From a bacterium (lineage in GTDB: Bacteria; UBA9089; UBA9088): DNA of 34,494 bases. This document shows, one piece after another, positions 11,782-34,494 of the stretch. The stretch's first letter is position 1. Each line of letters starts with the position of its first letter. The stretch spans positions 1 to 34,494 of the forward strand of contig JBFMED010000073.1 in the NCBI GenBank assembly GCA_040753475.1. The letters run 5' to 3'. Below the pieces are notes generated by a model. That model ran no database searches, was not told the origin of the DNA, and saw nothing but the letters and a program-made list of their open reading frames with translations. The translations under genes were made by a program, and so were the position numbers.

Positions 11782-12266
11782 TTCTTACCATAAAAAGATA
11801 CGGAAATCCCATATTGAGAAAAGAGGCATCGGATGTCAGAAAAATAGATGAGAAAATAAGAAAGATAGCATCTGATATGATAGAAACGCTCATTGCTGCT
11901 AATGGTCTTGGTCTTGCGGGAAATCAGGTTGGTATTTTGAAAAGAATAATTGTTGTGCGAATAAAAGAAAAGCCATTTGTCATTCTTAATCCAAAGGCTA
12001 TAAGCACAAGCGGAATTGTTGAAGAGGCATCTGAGGGTTGCCTGTCCTTTCCTTCCTTATTTGGCAATGTCCAAAGGGCTTTTACTATTACATTTAGGGG
12101 GCTTAATATAAACGGTGATGAGATTACAGGAGAGATAAGTGGATTACCTGCAAGGGCAATTCAGCATGAAATAGACCATCTTGACGGCATTTTGTTTATT
12201 GACAGGATGGATGAAAGCGAAAGAAAAAAGCTATTGGCTTTGTGGAGAAAGATAAAAATTACTTAA
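11778..12266 (+). CDS. def: Peptide deformylase
   Basis: GLAGNQVG, EGCLSFP and QHEIDHLDG are the three deformylase motifs. Confidence 0.9.
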   Translation: MILTIKRYGNPILRKEASDVRKIDEKIRKIASDMIETLIAANGLGLAGNQVGILKRIIVVRIKEKPFVILNPKAISTSGIVEEASEGCLSFPSLFGNVQRAFTITFRGLNINGDEITGEISGLPARAIQHEIDHLDGILFIDRMDESERKKLLALWRKIKIT

Positions 12267-12646
12267 GTCAAACATTTAATCCATATCTCCCTTTCCCTTG
12301 GTCCATCAAACTCACACAAAAATATCCTCTGCCATGTTCCCAAAACAAGCCTTTTATCCTTTACAAAAATAGAGAGAGAAGAGCCAATAATGGATGCCTT
12401 TATGTGAGCATCGGAGTTTCCCTCACTATGACGGAAATATGGGGAATCCCTTTTGATAATATTTGAAAGGCATTTTATGATATCAGAACAAACCTCTGGG
12501 TCATATCCTTCGTTTATGGTTATGGCACAGGTTGTATGGGGAACAAAGAGGTAAATAATGCCATCTTTATCTATTTCTCCTTTAATTTTTTCTGTAATAT
12601 CAACAAAAACCTCCCTCTTTGTTGTCGCTACATTTATAATCTTCAT
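12263..12646 (-). CDS. yjbQ: YjbQ/UPF0047 family protein (secondary thiamine-phosphate synthase)
   Basis: HTTCAITINE and GNSDAHIKASIIGSS. Confidence 0.75.
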   Translation of the reverse strand: MKIINVATTKREVFVDITEKIKGEIDKDGIIYLFVPHTTCAITINEGYDPEVCSDIIKCLSNIIKRDSPYFRHSEGNSDAHIKASIIGSSLSIFVKDKRLVLGTWQRIFLCEFDGPREREIWIKCLT

Positions 12647-27453: not shown

Positions 27454-27457
<4 letters not shown>

Positions 27458-27666
27458 TCCTTCACCTCAATAAATGTTCCACCAAAGTATGAATAGACAC
27501 ACCTTTCGGAATCAATAAGCCCTTTTATTGCCTCTTTGCAATCCTCCCTTGATACGCCATAAAGGCTTTCTATCTCCTTGGAAAGCTCCTGTGGCTTAAA
27601 TTTCTTCTTTCCCTGATATTCCTTTAAAATCCCATACATTGCCTCTTTTGTTTCCTCAATGGTCAT
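27454..27666 (-). CDS. dsrD: DsrD
   Basis: 70 aa with KKKFKPQEL...CVYSYFGGTFIEV, which aligns with the KSKFYF...YWSSGSTTMY pattern of DsrD. Lies 11 nt downstream of dsrB. Confidence 0.75.
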
Positions 27667-27677
27667 TTTGCACCCCC

Positions 27678-28745
27678 TTACTTCATCTGCGTGGTCATCC
27701 GGTAGGTGGTTAGCGAATGCCTAAAGTCATCCAAGTGATACTTGGTAAAGGAAATCCCGTTTATTTCAAAGAATTTTGGCCAGCCGATGCGTTCTATCCA
27801 TTCACAAAGACGTTCGTATTTCTTTGCATTCTTGGCATAAATTTCAACCATATTTTTAACTGCAGAAACAACCTCAGGCCACCTAGGAGGGTTGTTGGGA
27901 AGATAAGGAATTGCCAATTTTGTAAAGCTTGGGCGATTTCTTGCATTGGAGATTTTTCCTCCCACCCAGATAGACACCCCATCGTTTAATGGGTCGGCAA
28001 TCGGCATTGCCGGGCATACGGTATAGCAATTTCCACAATACATACAATTATCCTCATCTATTTCTACAGATTTCTTTCCCTCAATTATGGTTGGTCTTAT
28101 TGCTGCATTTGGACAGGAGGCAACCGTGCTTGGAATCTCGCAGATCTTGGGAAGCTTCTCATGGTCTATCTTAGGTGGTCTTCTATGAACCCCAAGTATT
28201 GCAATATCAGAGCAATGGACAGCACCGCACATATTAAGGCAACAAGCAACAGCAATTCTTAACTTGGCAGGTAGGTAGCTTTCTTGTGTAAAATATGGAT
28301 AAAGCCCATCCATTACAACCTTTACCAAACCAGAGGCATCGGTGGCAGATGAATGGCAATGAACCCATCCCTGGGTATGGACAATGTTTGAGATGCTATT
28401 CTTTGTCCCACCTACTCCAAAGCCATTGGAAGATAGCTCGCTTATCAAAGGCTCAATATTTTCTTCCTTGCCGAGCAAGAATTCAACATTATTTCGGCTG
28501 GTAAATCGCAAATATCCATTGCAATATTTATCTGCCAAGTCGCAGAATAGCCTAATCGTATCAGATGACAAAAGCCTTGGCGAGCCTGCCCGCACAGTGT
28601 AAATTTTATCCCCAGAATATGAGGTATGCACCAGAACCCCTGGCCTTAATACCTCATGATACCTCCATTTCCCATAGTTTCTCTTGATAGTTGGACAGAG
28701 AAACGCCTCATAATGGGGTGGACCAAAATCTGTCTTTCTTTCCAT
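27678..28745 (-). CDS. dsrB: Dissimilatory sulfite reductase beta subunit
   Basis: [21 protein letters not shown] and the ferredoxin insert [12 protein letters not shown]. Starts directly after the dsrA stop. Confidence 0.92.
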
Positions 28746-29924
28746 TTATTTTTCCTCCTCATAATATTCCTCATAAAAGATATAGGGATTCTCCCTTGGG
28801 TGAAAGACCATCTCTGGAATTGGCTTAAGCCCGATTGCTTCTACAAAATTCCCCAACCCAACCCTCTGGATGAGCTCTCCTATTCTCTCCCTTGCCTTTC
28901 CATGCTCATCCCAGAAATCCCACATTCTTCTAATCAATGCCTTAAGCTCATCGTAGGGCTTTTCTATCTTCATAAAGGGAACAAGCACAAAGGCAAGCTG
29001 GGCTCCCTCCTTAATCGGTGCCTTTGCTCCTATAAGAATAGCTGCTCCCCTTTCATCGCCAATGGAGAGTGCCTTTGGGATAATGTTTAGGCAATGCATA
29101 CACTTGCTACATTCACTATTGTCAATATTCAATGTCTTTCCATCCCATTCAATGCAATTCCTTGGGCATCTATCCACGATATCATTTTTAATATCTATCC
29201 CTTTTTCTACATATTCCATTATTGCATCCTGGTCTATTTTTATTTCATCCTTCCATATTCCAATGATTGCCAAATCTGACCTGGCAATACCTGCCACACA
29301 ATCATTTGGGCATCCTGCTGCTTTTACCTTGAATTTATAGGGAAAGAATGGCCGATGGATTTCATCCTGATAGCTAATTGTCAAATCATAGGTTAATGCC
29401 AGGGTGTCATAGCAGGCAAATTCACACCGGGCAGGGCCTACACAACAGCTGGGCGTTCTAATATCAGAGCCAGAACCCCCTAAATCCCAGCCAGCTTTGG
29501 AAAGCTCGGTAAATAAAGGTTCCAGGGAATCTGTATCTGCACCCAGCAGAACAAGGTCTCCGGTTGAGCCGTGAAGGTTGGTAAGACCTGAGCCATATTT
29601 GTCCCAGATATCCATAAGCTTTCTTAAGGCATCGGATGTATAAAACCAGCCCGAGGTCTGATTTACCCTTAGGGTATGAAAGTGTGCGGCGTCAGGAAAT
29701 TCATCGGGTAGGGCAGAAAACCTTCCAATTACGCCACCGCCATACCCCTTTACGCCAACAATCCCTCCATGCTTCCAATAGCCCCTTTTGTCTTTATAAG
29801 ACCTCTCAAGCTGGTTTAGAAGACCAATCGCCTTTTTGTTCTTTTCCCCGGCTTTCTTTATCTCTTTGACAAAGCTTGGCCATCTCCCCTTTTCTAATTC
29901 ATTTAACAATGGTGTTTCAGGCAT
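28746..29924 (-). CDS. dsrA: Dissimilatory sulfite reductase alpha subunit
   Basis: [38 protein letters not shown]. Confidence 0.92.
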
Positions 29925-30306
29925 TGCAACCTCCTTTATTTAGTGCCACAGGAAGTGGGCCTGCGGCAACAAGTTTTTTACGGCGAAAATCTATAATTGC
30001 TGGAAAACCTTCCAATGTTCTTGAACCAAGAAGAATAAGGTCACCCTTTTTTCCAAAAATAACCTCATCAATGGTTTCAAAGCCTTCGCTTTTAATCACA
30101 GCATAACCTACATCCCTTGTAATTATCTGGCCATTAGCCATTACAAACTGTAAATCCCTCTTTTTTACTGTAATTCCTGCCTTTTTAAGATAGCTTTCAG
30201 GAATCCATGTGTATTCAGAACCAGAGTCAACCATTGCTTTTACATCAACAGACCTTTCTTCTAATACTGGATTACTAACCGTGCAATCAACATAGAATAT
30301 CCCCAT
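29917..30306 (-). CDS. Retropepsin-like (clan AA) aspartic protease, small single-domain type
   Basis: [10 protein letters not shown] (D-S/T-G catalytic motif) and a [12 protein letters not shown] flap-like region, 129 aa. The stop overlaps the dsrA ATG (ATGCCTGA). The start is 1 nt after the dsrP stop. Confidence 0.7.
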
Positions 30307-30307
30307 T

Positions 30308-31489
30308 TTATTCCTCTATCCTTGCCTCCTTTGGAAGCAGGGGCAATATTTTAAGACCAAGCACATATAATATTCCTAGCATTGCAAATACAGAGACAAC
30401 CTGGATAAATTCAGGAAAGCTAACGCAATAGAAATCAAATGCACCATCCATAAAGGGGCTGGCAATGTGTTTTCCCGGGAAAAGCTCTAATGGATAGACC
30501 TGACCGGGAAATAGAATGATATACCTCTCACAAAAAACACCACAAACGACAAGAATTGAAGAGAAGATTACCCAGAATATCTCTTTTTTGAGCTTGGGAT
30601 GAAAGAGAATAATCAAGGGGATAATACAGCCAATCAAGATAAGCCCAATCCAGAATAATAATGAATATTCATTAAGGCTAAAAAGCATAAAATGGGTTGG
30701 GTAATATGTGTCGGGTGCATATATTCTAGTGAGGTTTTCTACAAAAAGGAAATATAGGACAACAATGATAAAAACCGCAAGCAATCTGGATAATCCAAGA
30801 AGAAGCCTTTGATCAAGAAAGCGATTAGTGCATTTAAAGGTTAGGGTCAATAAAACAATGATTAAGGCTGTGCCAGAAGATAAAGCTGCCGCAACAAAGC
30901 TTGGTGGGGTTAAGGGAGAATGATAAAGCTCCCTTGCCCTGATAAACCCAAATATTCCACCGGTTCCCGAATGAACAAGGATAGCAATAAAGACAGCAAT
31001 TACCCCTAATACCTTAATTGTTTTTTTCATCTCTTTTTCCATAGCAAAGATATAGACAAAGCATAGAAAAATATAGCTTGTATAAAACAGGGCATTCCAG
31101 GACAATATAGATTCTGGATTTGGATGGAAGAATAGCTCTAACACCCTCTCTGGCCTTCCCAAATTAAACCCTAGTGAAATAAGGGCACCGATCAATAATA
31201 TTGCGGCAAGGTAGGCGGCAACCCTTGCAAATGGCTTGTATTCCTTCTTTCCAAAGACAACCGAGAGGGATGATAAGATAAGGCTTCCCGCAGAAAGCCC
31301 AATAAAGTAAATGGTTAAAACCTTCATAATTCCCCAGGGGACATTGTTGGTCATCCCGGTAATGTAATACCCCTTGGTGAACATAATGTAGGAATAATAA
31401 GCTCCGGCAAGGGCAAGAATAATTAAGATTCCTAAAAATCCCCAAAACCTTTTATCTTTTCCTTCAATCCTACTAAAATACATCTTCAT
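30308..31489 (-). CDS. dsrP: DsrP (NrfD/PsrC-like integral membrane subunit)
   Basis: About 10 TM helices, 393 aa, in the dsrKJO..P context. Confidence 0.85.
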   Translation of the reverse strand: MKMYFSRIEGKDKRFWGFLGILIILALAGAYYSYIMFTKGYYITGMTNNVPWGIMKVLTIYFIGLSAGSLILSSLSVVFGKKEYKPFARVAAYLAAILLIGALISLGFNLGRPERVLELFFHPNPESILSWNALFYTSYIFLCFVYIFAMEKEMKKTIKVLGVIAVFIAILVHSGTGGIFGFIRARELYHSPLTPPSFVAAALSSGTALIIVLLTLTFKCTNRFLDQRLLLGLSRLLAVFIIVVLYFLFVENLTRIYAPDTYYPTHFMLFSLNEYSLLFWIGLILIGCIIPLIILFHPKLKKEIFWVIFSSILVVCGVFCERYIILFPGQVYPLELFPGKHIASPFMDGAFDFYCVSFPEFIQVVSVFAMLGILYVLGLKILPLLPKEARIEE

Positions 31490-31501
31490 TTAAACATCCC
31501 C

Positions 31502-31530
31502 ATTATATTAAAACAATCTCTTTTTGTTCA
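31502..31530 (-). promoter_or_regulatory. Possible internal promoter TGAACA-N17-TATAAT ahead of dsrP
   Basis: Minus strand reads TGAACAaaaagagattgttttaaTATAATggggatgtttaaATG. The -35 overlaps the stop of the upstream NTase gene. Confidence 0.3.
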
Positions 31531-31983
31531 ATGTTTGTTTTCGCCTTCTAGGTATTCCAAATCCCATTTATCCTGGGTTCTTCCATAAAATTTTTTAAGC
31601 ACAATAAGATCCTCACGGGAGATAAGAAAAACAGGCACATCTCCAAAATAAGATTTTGCTTTTTTCTCCCATGCCTCATTGAAACTAATCTTTTCCTGAG
31701 ATGTCCATACCTCTATCTTGAAAGGCTCCTCTCCTATTTCTAAACGCTGTCCTTTAACTAAAAATGCTTTTGGTTCTATGTTAACCCCAGCAAAATTTTT
31801 TATAGCCTTAACCATTCTTGTGCTGTTTTCTTCATCCTGCCTTATCCAAATATCCAAGTCTTTTGTAGCCCTGGCTACTTTAGTATGGAGCATAGTGCCA
31901 TAGGCACCAATAATGAGATATTCCACCCTATTTTTATTAAGTATATTAAGGAATCTTTCAAAGTCATCTTTGAAATTAGCCAT
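31528..31983 (-). CDS. Minimal nucleotidyltransferase-fold protein (DUF2204/DUF6036-like, family recalled from memory)
   Basis: VEYLIIGAYGTMLHTKVARATKDLDIWI fits the G[AS]...DxD NTase pattern, 151 aa. The ATG overlaps the stop of the 59-aa ORF (TAATG). Confidence 0.6.
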   Translation of the reverse strand: MANFKDDFERFLNILNKNRVEYLIIGAYGTMLHTKVARATKDLDIWIRQDEENSTRMVKAIKNFAGVNIEPKAFLVKGQRLEIGEEPFKIEVWTSQEKISFNEAWEKKAKSYFGDVPVFLISREDLIVLKKFYGRTQDKWDLEYLEGENKH

Positions 31984-32162
31984 TATTTTAAAAGCCTTAC
32001 AACATTCCTTTTTACATACATAGATTTTTTATCTTTCCCCAAGATTTTTACCCAGTATTGATACATTATAAACTCAATGGTTTTTAATAAATTCTCCCCT
32101 GAATCCTCTTTTAAATCTTGAGGTCTATCTTTAGAAACCCAACTTAATTTATATTTTATCAT
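31983..32162 (-). CDS. 59-aa ORF absent from the supplied track: MIKYKLSWVSKDRPQDLKEDSGENLLKTIEFIMYQYWVKILGKDKKSMYVKRNVVRLLK
   Basis: Hand translation of the minus strand. The ATG overlaps the dsrO stop (ATGA) and the stop overlaps the NTase ATG (TAATG), filling the dsrO-NTase gap exactly. Confidence 0.5.
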   Translation of the reverse strand: MIKYKLSWVSKDRPQDLKEDSGENLLKTIEFIMYQYWVKILGKDKKSMYVKRNVVRLLK

Positions 32163-32803
32163 ATTCCCAAATAATAAACCTTTGGCTTTAGCCTTAAATC
32201 TTCTCTAATTGCCTTTGCATCCTTTAGATTTATATTATTCAAATCACCAAAGGTAAAGACCTTATTTGGGCAAACCTCAACACAAACAGGCAATAACCCT
32301 TTGTCTACCCGATGCACACAAAAATTACACATTCCCGCCACACCAACCATCCTTCTGGGAACCCCTGGGTTGGTAATCTTGTTTTCCTTAAAGACAAATG
32401 ACCTTGCCTTGTATGGGCAGGCAATCATACAATACCTACAGCCAATACACCTGTGAGCATCAACCAAGACTATGCCATCATCCCTTATAAATGATGCCTT
32501 TACCGGGCAAACACGAACACAAGGGGCATCGCTACAATGATTGCAAAGCAAGGGAATATTTTTGCCCTCCATCTTTGCTATCCTTATCCAATAGTTATCA
32601 ATGGTTTTTTTCCCAAACATACCTAAATTATTCTCTTTTGCACAAGCCTTGACGCATTCATTACAACCATTGCATTTACTAGCATCAATAAGCATCCCAT
32701 ATTTCTTTTTCTTGGGAATGCAAGCAAAAACCTCATCTAGCCCAGAAATTGCTGTGCTTATCAGCAAAGAACCAGATATTTTAAGAAATTCCCTTCTATT
32801 CAT
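32159..32803 (-). CDS. dsrO: DsrO (periplasmic ferredoxin-like subunit with a Tat signal)
   Basis: NRREFLK twin-arginine motif, plus CNGCNECVKAC, CNHCSDAPCVRVCP, CIGCRYCMIACP and CNFCVHR...CVEVCP. Confidence 0.88.
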   Translation of the reverse strand: MNRREFLKISGSLLISTAISGLDEVFACIPKKKKYGMLIDASKCNGCNECVKACAKENNLGMFGKKTIDNYWIRIAKMEGKNIPLLCNHCSDAPCVRVCPVKASFIRDDGIVLVDAHRCIGCRYCMIACPYKARSFVFKENKITNPGVPRRMVGVAGMCNFCVHRVDKGLLPVCVEVCPNKVFTFGDLNNINLKDAKAIREDLRLKPKVYYLGI

Positions 32804-32806
32804 CTT

Positions 32807-33121
32807 TTAAGGATAATAATGGCAGTTAAAGCACAATGGCTTTACGCCAGCAAAATTATGGCACCTATTGCAAAAATTCTCTCTATTATGATGACACAAG
32901 ATGCAACTTGTCAAGGTAAATGAACCCCTTATCCCTTCCCTTACTGCCTTTTCCCTTGCTTCTTTTAATAGCTCCATATGGTTTTTTCTCATAAAATCCC
33001 TCTCCTGGACGCATTTTCCCTTAGGGAGAACAAGCTCTGGCTCTTCAGGCTTTCTAAAACCTTGTAATAAGATTGGCGAAAGCATAATTAAAATAAAGGC
33101 AAAAACAAGAAATATCTTCAT
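32807..33121 (-). CDS. dsrJ: DsrJ (triheme cytochrome c)
   Basis: Signal anchor, CILCH, CNRCH and CFNCH, conserved PKGKC cysteine. Lies between dsrK and dsrO. Confidence 0.88.
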   Translation of the reverse strand: MKIFLVFAFILIMLSPILLQGFRKPEEPELVLPKGKCVQERDFMRKNHMELLKEAREKAVREGIRGSFTLTSCILCHHNRENFCNRCHNFAGVKPLCFNCHYYP

Positions 33122-34494
33122 AAGACAATAGAGCGTCCAACCAGCTGATGGACGCCACCCACCATTTCCATGGGAAACCCAAACTTGGGAAATACAGCAC
33201 TAAATTGTGCCTTGCAGATTGCACAAATCAGAGCAAAGAAATTAACGCCGTCGCTATCTACAACCTGTTTCAGGGCATTCATCCTTGGAGTAGCACCCTT
33301 TAGCCTTATTTCCATAAGCTCATCGGTAAGAAGACCTCCACCCGCACCACAGCAAAATGTTTTTTCCCTTATGGTTTCAGGGTTCATCTCAACAAATTTA
33401 TTACAGGATGCCTTAATAAGGGCTCTGGGTATCTCAAATTGACCACCGGGAAAATTTCCCATTCTGGATGCCCTTGCCACATTACAGGAATCGTGAAAGG
33501 TTGCCACAAATTCATCATTTGCAGATTTATCAAGCTTAAGCAAGCCATCCTTGATTAAATTATAGGTAAATTCAGAGATATGCTCTGGGATGGGATATTT
33601 TGGGTCTAAATCAAATGGTCCTTGTAATGTATTCCAGAAATTATAGGCAACCCGAAAGGCATGGCCACATTCACCCACAATAAGCCTCTTTGGCTTAAGC
33701 TCTCTTATTGCATCAGCTATTCTCTTGGTTGTCTCTTGCATAACCCTATAGCTTCCAATGAACATACTAAAATTTCCCGCCTCAGAGGCATAGGATGAGA
33801 TTGTCCAGGAAATCCCTGCCTTATGAAACACCTTAGCATATCCCTTTAAAGACTCAATATGGGGAGAGGCAAAGAAATCTGCCGAGGGTGTAATAAATAA
33901 AACCTCCGCACCCTCTACATCCAGAGGAATACGCACATCAATGCCGCTCTCTTCCTTTATCTCCTCTTCCATAAAGCTAAGGGTATTTTGCAGGGCAGGC
34001 TTTTGTATCCCAAGGTTATTCCCTATTTCAAGAAACTTTACCAAAACCTCGGTAGTGTATTTTTGTCCTATACCAATTTCATCCATAATTTCCCTTGCCG
34101 CCATTGAAATCTCTGCCGTATCTATGCCATAAGGGCAGAAAACCGAACACCTTCTGCATTGTGAGCATTGGTGAAAATAGACAAACCATTCATTAAGGGT
34201 ATCTTCGCTTATCCTCCTTTCCCGATAAACCTTCCTAAATAGCTCAGCCCTTGCCACTGGCATATTCTTTGGGTCAGATGTCCCTAAGAAAAATTGGCAT
34301 TTATCACTACAAGAGCCACATCTAACACAAATATCCATAAATAGCCTCAGGGATTTGTATTTTTTAAGCAATTCTGACATCTTTGCAATCGCCTCTTTCT
34401 GCCAATTTTCTACCCTTGTCTTTGGAAAGCCAAGGAATTCCATATGGGCTTCCTTTGCCGGGTATGGCTTAATTGAGGCGGTTGCCTCCCTCTT
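33118..34494 (-). CDS. dsrK: DsrK (HdrD-like catalytic Fe-S subunit), N-terminus outside the window
   Basis: CVRCGSCSDKC, CSQCRRCSVFCPYG and the CCG domain (CCGAGGG). The frame stays open upstream of M-34443 to the window edge (KREATASIKPYPAKEAH-MEF...). Confidence 0.88.
   Translation of the reverse strand, partial: KREATASIKPYPAKEAHMEFLGFPKTRVENWQKEAIAKMSELLKKYKSLRLFMDICVRCGSCSDKCQFFLGTSDPKNMPVARAELFRKVYRERRISEDTLNEWFVYFHQCSQCRRCSVFCPYGIDTAEISMAAREIMDEIGIGQKYTTEVLVKFLEIGNNLGIQKPALQNTLSFMEEEIKEESGIDVRIPLDVEGAEVLFITPSADFFASPHIESLKGYAKVFHKAGISWTISSYASEAGNFSMFIGSYRVMQETTKRIADAIRELKPKRLIVGECGHAFRVAYNFWNTLQGPFDLDPKYPIPEHISEFTYNLIKDGLLKLDKSANDEFVATFHDSCNVARASRMGNFPGGQFEIPRALIKASCNKFVEMNPETIREKTFCCGAGGGLLTDELMEIRLKGATPRMNALKQVVDSDGVNFFALICAICKAQFSAVFPKFGFPMEMVGGVHQLVGRSIVL

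Follow-up and report, generated by a model that had tools for sequence, protein, structure and literature searches.

A gene for a small retropepsin-like aspartic protease lies between dsrP and dsrA in a bacterial string of sulfate-reduction genes. We examine this gene in contig JBFMED010000073.1 (GenBank assembly GCA_040753475.1; GTDB lineage Bacteria, UBA9089, UBA9088), whose full length of 34,494 nucleotides is referred to here as the window. The protease open reading frame (ORF) occupies positions 29917-30306 on the minus strand, as do all genes and motifs of the sulfate-reduction string located below; it starts with ATG, matches Pfam PF13975 and PF13650, and encodes a stand-alone clan AA protein of 129 aa. 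We consider it likely that the protease is a lineage-specific hitchhiker: a member of the uncharacterized prokaryotic single-domain clan AA peptidases that is transcribed passively with the dissimilatory sulfite reductase (dsr) genes without contributing specifically to sulfite reduction.

If the hitchhiker reading is true, its consequence is mainly one of annotation: a protease gene inside a dsr operon is not to be read as a new Dsr component. Beyond this locus, the subfamily is common and very conserved across more than 15 phyla, and its promoter-less habit in unrelated operons would make it a cheap target for the first biochemistry of bacterial cytoplasmic retropepsins. Sister species are without the 20-kb sulfate-reduction string, which would exemplify how a highly expressed operon, probably a transferred one, acts as a safe harbor for passenger genes.

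The dsrP–dsrA position and its junctions

Comparative evidence carries the hitchhiker reading. Among 40 GTDB relatives searched, 17 carry dsrA (68-75% identity), and in all 17 a protease homolog is absent from both the dsrA contig and the dsrA locus of approximately 4 kb. In 8 of the 17, dsrP is followed directly by dsrA, with approximately 60-245 nt between the two genes; in 5 of these 8, dsrO abuts dsrP, so that a second insert of the window, a nucleotidyltransferase (NTase) cassette, is absent too. The four closest environmental dsrA contigs, found by a DsrA search of a large protein collection, encode DsrA proteins 80-86% identical to that of the window. Three of them have dsrP (77-84% identical) immediately before dsrA, the two genes overlapping by 23 nt in one case and leaving gaps of 50 nt and 115 nt in the others; in the fourth contig, this place is taken by dsrC. 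A tblastn search extended to an E value of 10 found no protease match or remnant in these four contigs, the dsrP–dsrA spacers included. Overall, dsrP stands directly before dsrA in 11 of 21 loci (relatives and environmental contigs together), and the protease is found in none of the 21. The closest dsrA contigs (80-86%) are without the insertion; by this comparison, it arose after lineages with 86% DsrA identity had branched off. Judged in the same manner, the protease is not a conserved Dsr component. The first-pass annotation of this DNA had offered two options, a hitchhiking small gene or a factor that processes or regulates Dsr proteins. The former fits all comparative data; the latter fares badly, as the dsrA-adjacent position is conserved in no relative examined, an outcome that this annotation had itself named as a refutation.

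Two observations concern the dsr loci of close relatives in their own right. In the contig with the closest DsrA (86%; L136:1281-3671), a gene for ATP sulfurylase follows straight after dsrA and there is no dsrB; this assembly is possibly chimeric. In another close relative (DsrA 84%; L137:91-477), a small foreign gene within dsrMKJOP, of the bAvd/23S_rRNA_IVP four-helix-bundle type, is located just upstream of dsrO.

Within the window, the protease gene is fitted tightly between its neighbors. On the 5' side, a single base (30307) separates the TAA of dsrP from the protease ATG, and a GAGG motif resembling a Shine–Dalgarno sequence is contained in the 3' end of dsrP (junction at 30307-30325); this motif is a plausible ribosome-binding site for the protease. 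On the 3' side, the protease stop and the dsrA start overlap by 8 nt, ATGCCTGA (29917-29924), in which the protease TGA occupies 29917-29919. Both the ORF coordinates with the 1-nt gap to dsrP and the overlap of the stop with the dsrA ATG had been read correctly in the first-pass annotation. The last eight codons of the protease, LNKGGCNA, together with the stop (29917-29943) read through the dsrA leader and its Shine–Dalgarno sequence, AAAGGAGGT, into the first bases of dsrA. This tail is not a defect: the family core ends in GPxP[AV]A, where 35 of 117 homologs terminate, and the others add variable extensions of 1-26 aa.

Translational coupling to dsrA, previously thought probable, is weakened by these data. 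The dsrA gene has a strong Shine–Dalgarno sequence of its own, AAGGAGG, placed 5 nt 5' of the ATG, and a comparable A-rich stretch with GGAG(G) is present in nearly all dsrA leaders of the 17 relatives. From the sequence, coupling between the two genes is possible, but not needed, because dsrA has its own ribosome-binding site.

A scan for sigma-70-like sites, which overall yielded no more sites than shuffled sequence, found none between dsrP and dsrA on the minus strand; the best such site of the region lies at 31531-31502, upstream of dsrP. Around the protease gene, no promoter or terminator specific to it was detected on the minus strand, and the window is devoid of tRNA and Rfam elements.

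These features can be combined into a simple scenario. In this lineage alone, the protease gene would occupy the short dsrP–dsrA spacer and, because no promoter of its own is detected, would most likely be transcribed passively on the dsr polycistronic mRNA. Translation would start from the GAGG motif inside the dsrP end; the product would probably form a homodimer, with Asp27 supplied by each chain, and this dimer would cleave a cytoplasmic substrate without specific connection to Dsr. The overlap with the dsrA ATG would be a by-product of genome compaction, since dsrA retains its own strong Shine–Dalgarno sequence.

The same junctions admit a different explanation, in which the protease is a recruited Dsr accessory factor. 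It would serve in the processing, maturation, or quality control of DsrAB or some other Dsr protein, trimming a terminus, for instance, or clearing misassembled Fe–S/sirohaem subunits, and would be made in a fixed ratio with DsrA via the overlap. The seamless embedding with its 8-nt stop/start overlap speaks for this explanation, as does a gene that is both intact and constrained. We regard it as quite unlikely: the position is unique among the 21 dsrA loci, including those at 80-86% DsrA identity; the DsrA N-terminus and the dsrA leader are alike in relatives without the protease; and the Shine–Dalgarno sequence of dsrA makes coupling unnecessary. Moreover, we know of no Dsr protein that requires proteolytic maturation. 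The top-ranked literature matches for aspartic or retropepsin protease terms combined with dsrMKJOP contained no mention of dsrMKJOP.

A single-domain clan AA peptidase

On sequence grounds, the protease ORF is a real gene and not a chance frame. It scores above the Pfam gathering thresholds for gag-asp_proteas (PF13975; 33.8 bits, cut-off 28.2) and Asp_protease_2 (PF13650; 29.6 bits, cut-off 24.3). A collection of 5.8 billion proteins contains 2935 homologs (counted as clusters), the best at an E value of 1e-47 and 71% identity, and the typical homolog is 122 aa long. The start codon is fixed, because the N-terminal MGIFYVD matches the N-terminus of the family, where conservation of both M1 and G2 is 90% or higher.

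The earlier identification of a retropepsin-like clan AA gene with a DSGS motif holds. The motif, D27-S-G-S30, is encoded at 30220-30231 and is part of M25-V26-D27-S28-G29-S30, which has the clan pattern of two hydrophobic residues followed by D-[ST]-G-[AS]. Conservation of the catalytic Asp, the lack of which the first-pass annotation had named as a refutation, is borne out: across 120 homologs, conservation of D27 is 90% or higher, and D[ST]G[SA] is present in 65 of the 69 genome copies whose motif region can be parsed. A second motif, L90-I-L-L-G-S95 (codons at 30022-30039), stands out by its conservation, with L90, L92, L93, and G94 invariant or nearly so, and corresponds to the hydrophobic-hydrophobic-Gly (ILG/LLG) motif of clan AA. 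We take residues 90-99 to be the equivalent of I84-I85-G86-R87 in the protease of human immunodeficiency virus 1 (HIV-1). The first-pass annotation had mistaken this segment for the flap, which is instead the hairpin at approximately residues 47-73.

A first AlphaFold model, from a 22-sequence alignment, has a mean predicted local distance difference test (pLDDT) score of 70, and its best fold match is insignificant (E 0.17). A second model, from a 120-sequence alignment, reaches a pLDDT of 81 and a predicted template-modeling (TM) score, pTM, of 0.72; residues 125-129 stay below 50 in pLDDT. Its long hairpin, formed by strands E47-55 and E61-73, is the equivalent of the flap and carries FVMANGQ..TRDVGY; residues 90-99 come after it. 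Foldseek with the second model returns 20 matches at E values of 1e-3 or below, nearly all of them retroviral proteases (HIV-1; human T-cell leukemia virus 1, HTLV-1; simian foamy virus, SFV), the best with an E value of approximately 4e-4 and a probability of 1.00. The next matches, at E values of 1.4e-3 to 3e-3 and TM scores of 0.5-0.7, are the retroviral protease-like (RVP) domain of DDI1 (3s8i), ApRick, and the protease of xenotropic murine leukemia virus-related virus (XMRV). By sequence profile, ApRick is the only solved relative (E 0.014), and its DTGA, ANG, and LLG motifs align. The second model thus predicts a retropepsin fold with a flap hairpin.

This copy of the gene is well preserved. 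Of the 63 columns whose consensus reaches 80% or more, it agrees with the consensus at 60, and the three deviations are conservative (A/L, I/V, and I/V); all invariant residues are kept and the ORF is full length. At the sequence level, purifying constraint is evident. This state of preservation bears on a further explanation, that the ORF is an inert leftover, a decaying remnant tolerated in the spacer. In favor of decay, one can cite the apparently frameshifted copy in relative G023, the 8-codon tail that runs into the dsrA leader, and a low GC content at third codon positions (GC3). We consider decay extremely improbable nonetheless, as the full-length ORF keeps the catalytic Asp, all invariant residues, and 60 of the 63 conserved columns; tails of this length are normal in the family, and the GAGG motif offers a plausible ribosome-binding site.

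The protein is predicted to be soluble and cytoplasmic, because a hydrophobic segment is absent: the maximum Kyte–Doolittle mean over 19 residues is 0.91. There is no pro-region either, and neither a signal peptide nor a membrane anchor of the kind seen in exported APRc or Rlo proteins was found, the N-terminus being part of the first strand. A PADLOC search gave no match for the protease, and PHROGs gave no meaningful one.

Prokaryotic single-domain clan AA peptidases of approximately 120 residues have been recognized since at least 2009 and are widely distributed, but little is known of them (PMC2642776). The window protease resembles these pSNCAPs (COG3577/COG5550; PF13650, PF13975) in its stand-alone ORF of approximately 120 aa and its D-[ST]-G-[AS] and LLG motifs; unlike the other family loci examined, it sits inside a dsr operon. 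The first-pass annotation had suggested the AF_0612-type family, TIGR03698 (clan_AA_DTGF). This model is indeed the best NCBIfam match (model positions 1-106 of 107, E 2.8e-10), but the score of 40.4 bits stays below the curated cut-off of 57.35, and the motif is DSGS in the window protease (DTGS in most of its family) as opposed to DTGF. We therefore treat TIGR03698, by its score and motif, as a related family and not that of the window protease. The profile search that had been proposed as a check is accordingly positive for Asp_protease_2/gag-asp_proteas and negative for TIGR03698.

Comparison with better-known enzymes reveals a shared fold and different settings. APRc (ApRick) of Rickettsia conorii (PDB 5c9b), a membrane-associated and autoprocessed protease from an intracellular pathogen (PMC4140852), matches the fold with a TM score of 0.53-0.58 at 23% identity; the window protease differs in having neither a hydrophobic segment nor a pro-region. 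The Rlo proteins of Pseudomonas aeruginosa are secreted or periplasmic retropepsin-like enzymes (PMC12239564), and one of them (PDB 9g59) turned up in Foldseek with the first model, where no fold match was significant. Both Rlo and APRc carry export signals that the window protease is without, whereas fold and motifs are common to all. Retroviral proteases and the RVP domain of eukaryotic DDI1 have the same fold (TM scores 0.5-0.7) and the same catalytic and LLG motifs at 13-24% identity; unlike them, the window protease is neither part of a polyprotein or retroelement nor joined to ubiquitin-like or ubiquitin-associated (UBA) domains.

Closest in setting is RimB, a small cytoplasmic retropepsin-like protease of the Pseudomonas rimABK operon that acts on the products of its own operon and that co-occurs, and is even fused, with rimK across bacteria (PMC11957791). 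By analogy, RimB could serve as a precedent for an accessory factor, since it is an operon-encoded protease that acts on its operon partners (PMC11957791). However, RimB has a conserved partner; the window protease has none, and it has no Pfam match to another protease family. Overall, the window protease is best described, from sequence comparison, as a further member of a known, uncharacterized kind, at a position not shared by the other loci examined.

Family distribution and passenger behavior

Genomes representing 185,579 species (one genome per species) contain 476 stretches that encode family members. Neighborhoods were analyzed for the best 80 of the 476, which are 51-70% identical to the window protease, and flanking genes were clustered for 75 loci from more than 15 phyla. 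Phyla and groups represented include Acidobacteriota, Planctomycetota, Spirochaetia, Elusimicrobia, Omnitrophota, WOR-3, KSB1, Latescibacterota, Verrucomicrobiota, Chloroflexi, NPL-UPA2, and others; one metagenome-assembled genome (MAG) labeled as an archaeon is also among the best 80 stretches. Across phyla, the subfamily retains 55-72% identity and a signature of MGxFYVD...FxMANGQ...FETVDEVVF plus the motif at residues 90-99. A specific description of this subfamily was not found in the literature. In relative G023, a protease copy of 59-69% identity is split over two frames with internal stops (C89:5560-5938; L021), either as a pseudogene or through an assembly error.

The neighborhoods are diverse. 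Three homologs examined singly stand in unrelated housekeeping contexts, and in the 75 loci flanking genes recur only inside single taxonomic families. The 141 flanking proteins match 148 different Pfam families, none of which has more than 8 members. The 80 family loci gave no DsrA or DsrB match by tblastn, a further point against a recruited Dsr accessory factor. Approximately 70% of neighbors are co-directional with the protease gene; neighbors that are both co-directional and within 20 nt make up 20 of 74 on the upstream side and 18 of 74 on the downstream side.

Several of these loci show the protease gene wedged into an operon. In Gemmataceae and other Planctomycetota, a family member is located between gltB and gltD (L127:2503-6913, L082, L116, and L069), and in the first of these it begins 2 nt past gltB; because several planctomycetal loci share the position, it represents one older insertion. 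A Pyrinomonadaceae MAG (L101:3373-8847) has a family member between a fused nrfC-nrfD gene and a gene for a 1093-aa molybdopterin oxidoreductase. As in the window, the family member directly follows a gene for an NrfD-type membrane subunit; as 1 of 75 loci, this second case may be due to chance. In other Pyrinomonadaceae, the family member stands between the type II secretion genes T2SS-F and T2SS-E, and in a relative from the same phylum as the window genome it lies 10 nt after a glutamate synthase (GOGAT) gene. This recurrent wedging into unrelated operons supports the passenger reading.

A connection to Dsr through GltD-like flavoproteins among these neighbors was considered, given that the window holds a DsrL-like one, and rejected: the neighbors are ordinary GOGAT subunits (TIGR01316/TIGR01317) with 39% identity, not PRK12771/DsrL-like proteins.

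The wedged loci can also be read in the opposite direction. The insertions at nrfCD|Mo-oxidoreductase and gltB|gltD are both in Fe–S redox operons and count in favor of an accessory factor at dsrP|dsrA. Taken further, the entire subfamily could serve Fe–S redox complexes as a dedicated cytoplasmic protease for maturation or quality control, one that was recruited repeatedly and independently at these three places (dsrP|dsrA, nrfCD|Mo-oxidoreductase, and gltB|gltD), and that would here act on DsrAB in step with DsrA through the overlap. We give this broader proposal very little credence.

Passengers need not be neutral, and the protease could be a selfish or conflict element: a toxin-like or defense passenger, similar to the AbiEii-like NTase cassette two genes upstream, that persists by residing in an indispensable, highly expressed operon. 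The patchy distribution across phyla at high identity is in line with such an element. The window protease is 69% identical to the copy of an NPL-UPA2 MAG, compared with 53% for the threonyl-tRNA synthetases (ThrRS) of the same two genomes; for this one genome pair, the contrast would fit either horizontal spread or unusually strong constraint. The repeated wedging into operons, the NTase cassette in the same gene string, and the proximity of two family loci to DNA methylase genes and of two to DUF4258 genes point the same way. The evidence against a selfish element comprises the PADLOC and PHROG searches, with no match in the former and none of meaning in the latter; the 75 loci, which showed neither a conserved antitoxin-like partner nor an integrase or repeats; and the neighbors, which are mostly housekeeping genes. 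On balance, we consider a selfish element unlikely.

The reading of the protease as a passive hitchhiker has its own difficulties. With a gap of 1 nt on one side and an overlap of 8 nt on the other, the gene is integrated unusually seamlessly, and a recruited accessory factor would be expected to show this as well, together with the constraint on the gene. Because the copy is under purifying constraint, the host appears to keep the protease and to express it stoichiometrically with Dsr. That the protease has no relation to Dsr is argued from a lack of co-occurrence, and it might not be a coincidence that two of the other operon-embedded cases (Mo-oxidoreductase and GOGAT) involve Fe–S redox enzymes. 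Finally, no mechanism of mobility for the protease gene, whether repeats, integrase, or tRNA, was found. All of these points weigh against passive hitchhiking, which we nonetheless prefer.

The gene string around the protease

The window falls into two parts. The left 12.6 kb, with thrS, yjeF, aconitase-family genes, def, and others, is syntenic with two genomes of the same genus at 80-96% amino acid identity; the synteny extends from thrS to the gene at 12263-12646 and ends at approximately 12.65 kb. The sulfate-reduction string is located in 12650-34494, and neither a tRNA nor an integrase was found at the boundary near 12.65 kb. The same-genus genomes, which are 95-97% complete, have neither dsrA nor the protease subfamily; their best matches to the protease are paralogs of 35-39% identity. 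A mis-binned contig as the reason for the absence of dsr in the sisters is ruled out by thrS and its neighbors, which are syntenic at 86-96% amino acid identity. Since these near-complete genomes are without dsrA, either this species gained the string or its sisters lost it, and the protease is distributed in the same way. The sulfate-reduction string is compacted and was probably acquired horizontally.

Base composition sets the protease apart from its neighbors: its GC3 is 0.25, compared with 0.40-0.43 for dsrP and dsrA and 0.31-0.37 for housekeeping genes. Composition hints weakly that the gene either has a separate origin or is less adapted in its codons.

The protease is accompanied by a second insert. 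The NTase cassette (31528-32162) consists of a 59-aa ORF (31983-32162; 26% GC) and a DUF6036/AbiEii-like NTase (31528-31983), whose likeness to AbiEii is weak. It has the lowest GC in the region. Where dsrO abuts dsrP, in 5 of the GTDB relatives and in 2 of the close environmental contigs, the cassette is missing. The presence of this cassette in the same gene string agrees with the passenger reading of the protease.

Retropepsin-like genes are not confined to the dsr operon. The 1.3-Mb genome to which the window belongs encodes at least 4 further small (121-133 aa) retropepsin-like paralogs with D[TAS]G[AV] motifs and no evident partner gene (C207:830-1195, C165:146-526, C165:5136-5516, and C217:6247-6648), and relatives in the phylum have up to 12 retropepsin-like matches per genome.

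Upstream of the NTase cassette, dsrK (33118-34443) and dsrO (32159-32803) score above their NCBIfam cut-offs, and the gene between them, dsrJ (32807-33121), has DsrJ as its best NCBIfam match at 76 bits, below the cut-off. The 5' neighbor of the protease, dsrP (30308-31489, stop included), encodes an NrfD-family membrane subunit (Pfam NrfD, E 9.5e-61); its best NCBIfam match is DsrP at 94 bits, under the equivalog cut-off. The protein is 77-84% identical to DsrP of the closest relatives, and its C-terminus aligns with theirs to the end. On the 3' side of the protease, dsrA (28746-29924) scores 578 bits against TIGR02064 (cut-off 393) and dsrB (27678-28745) scores 516 bits against TIGR02066. 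Beyond dsrB lies a 70-aa ORF (27454-27666), which is found again behind dsrB in relatives.

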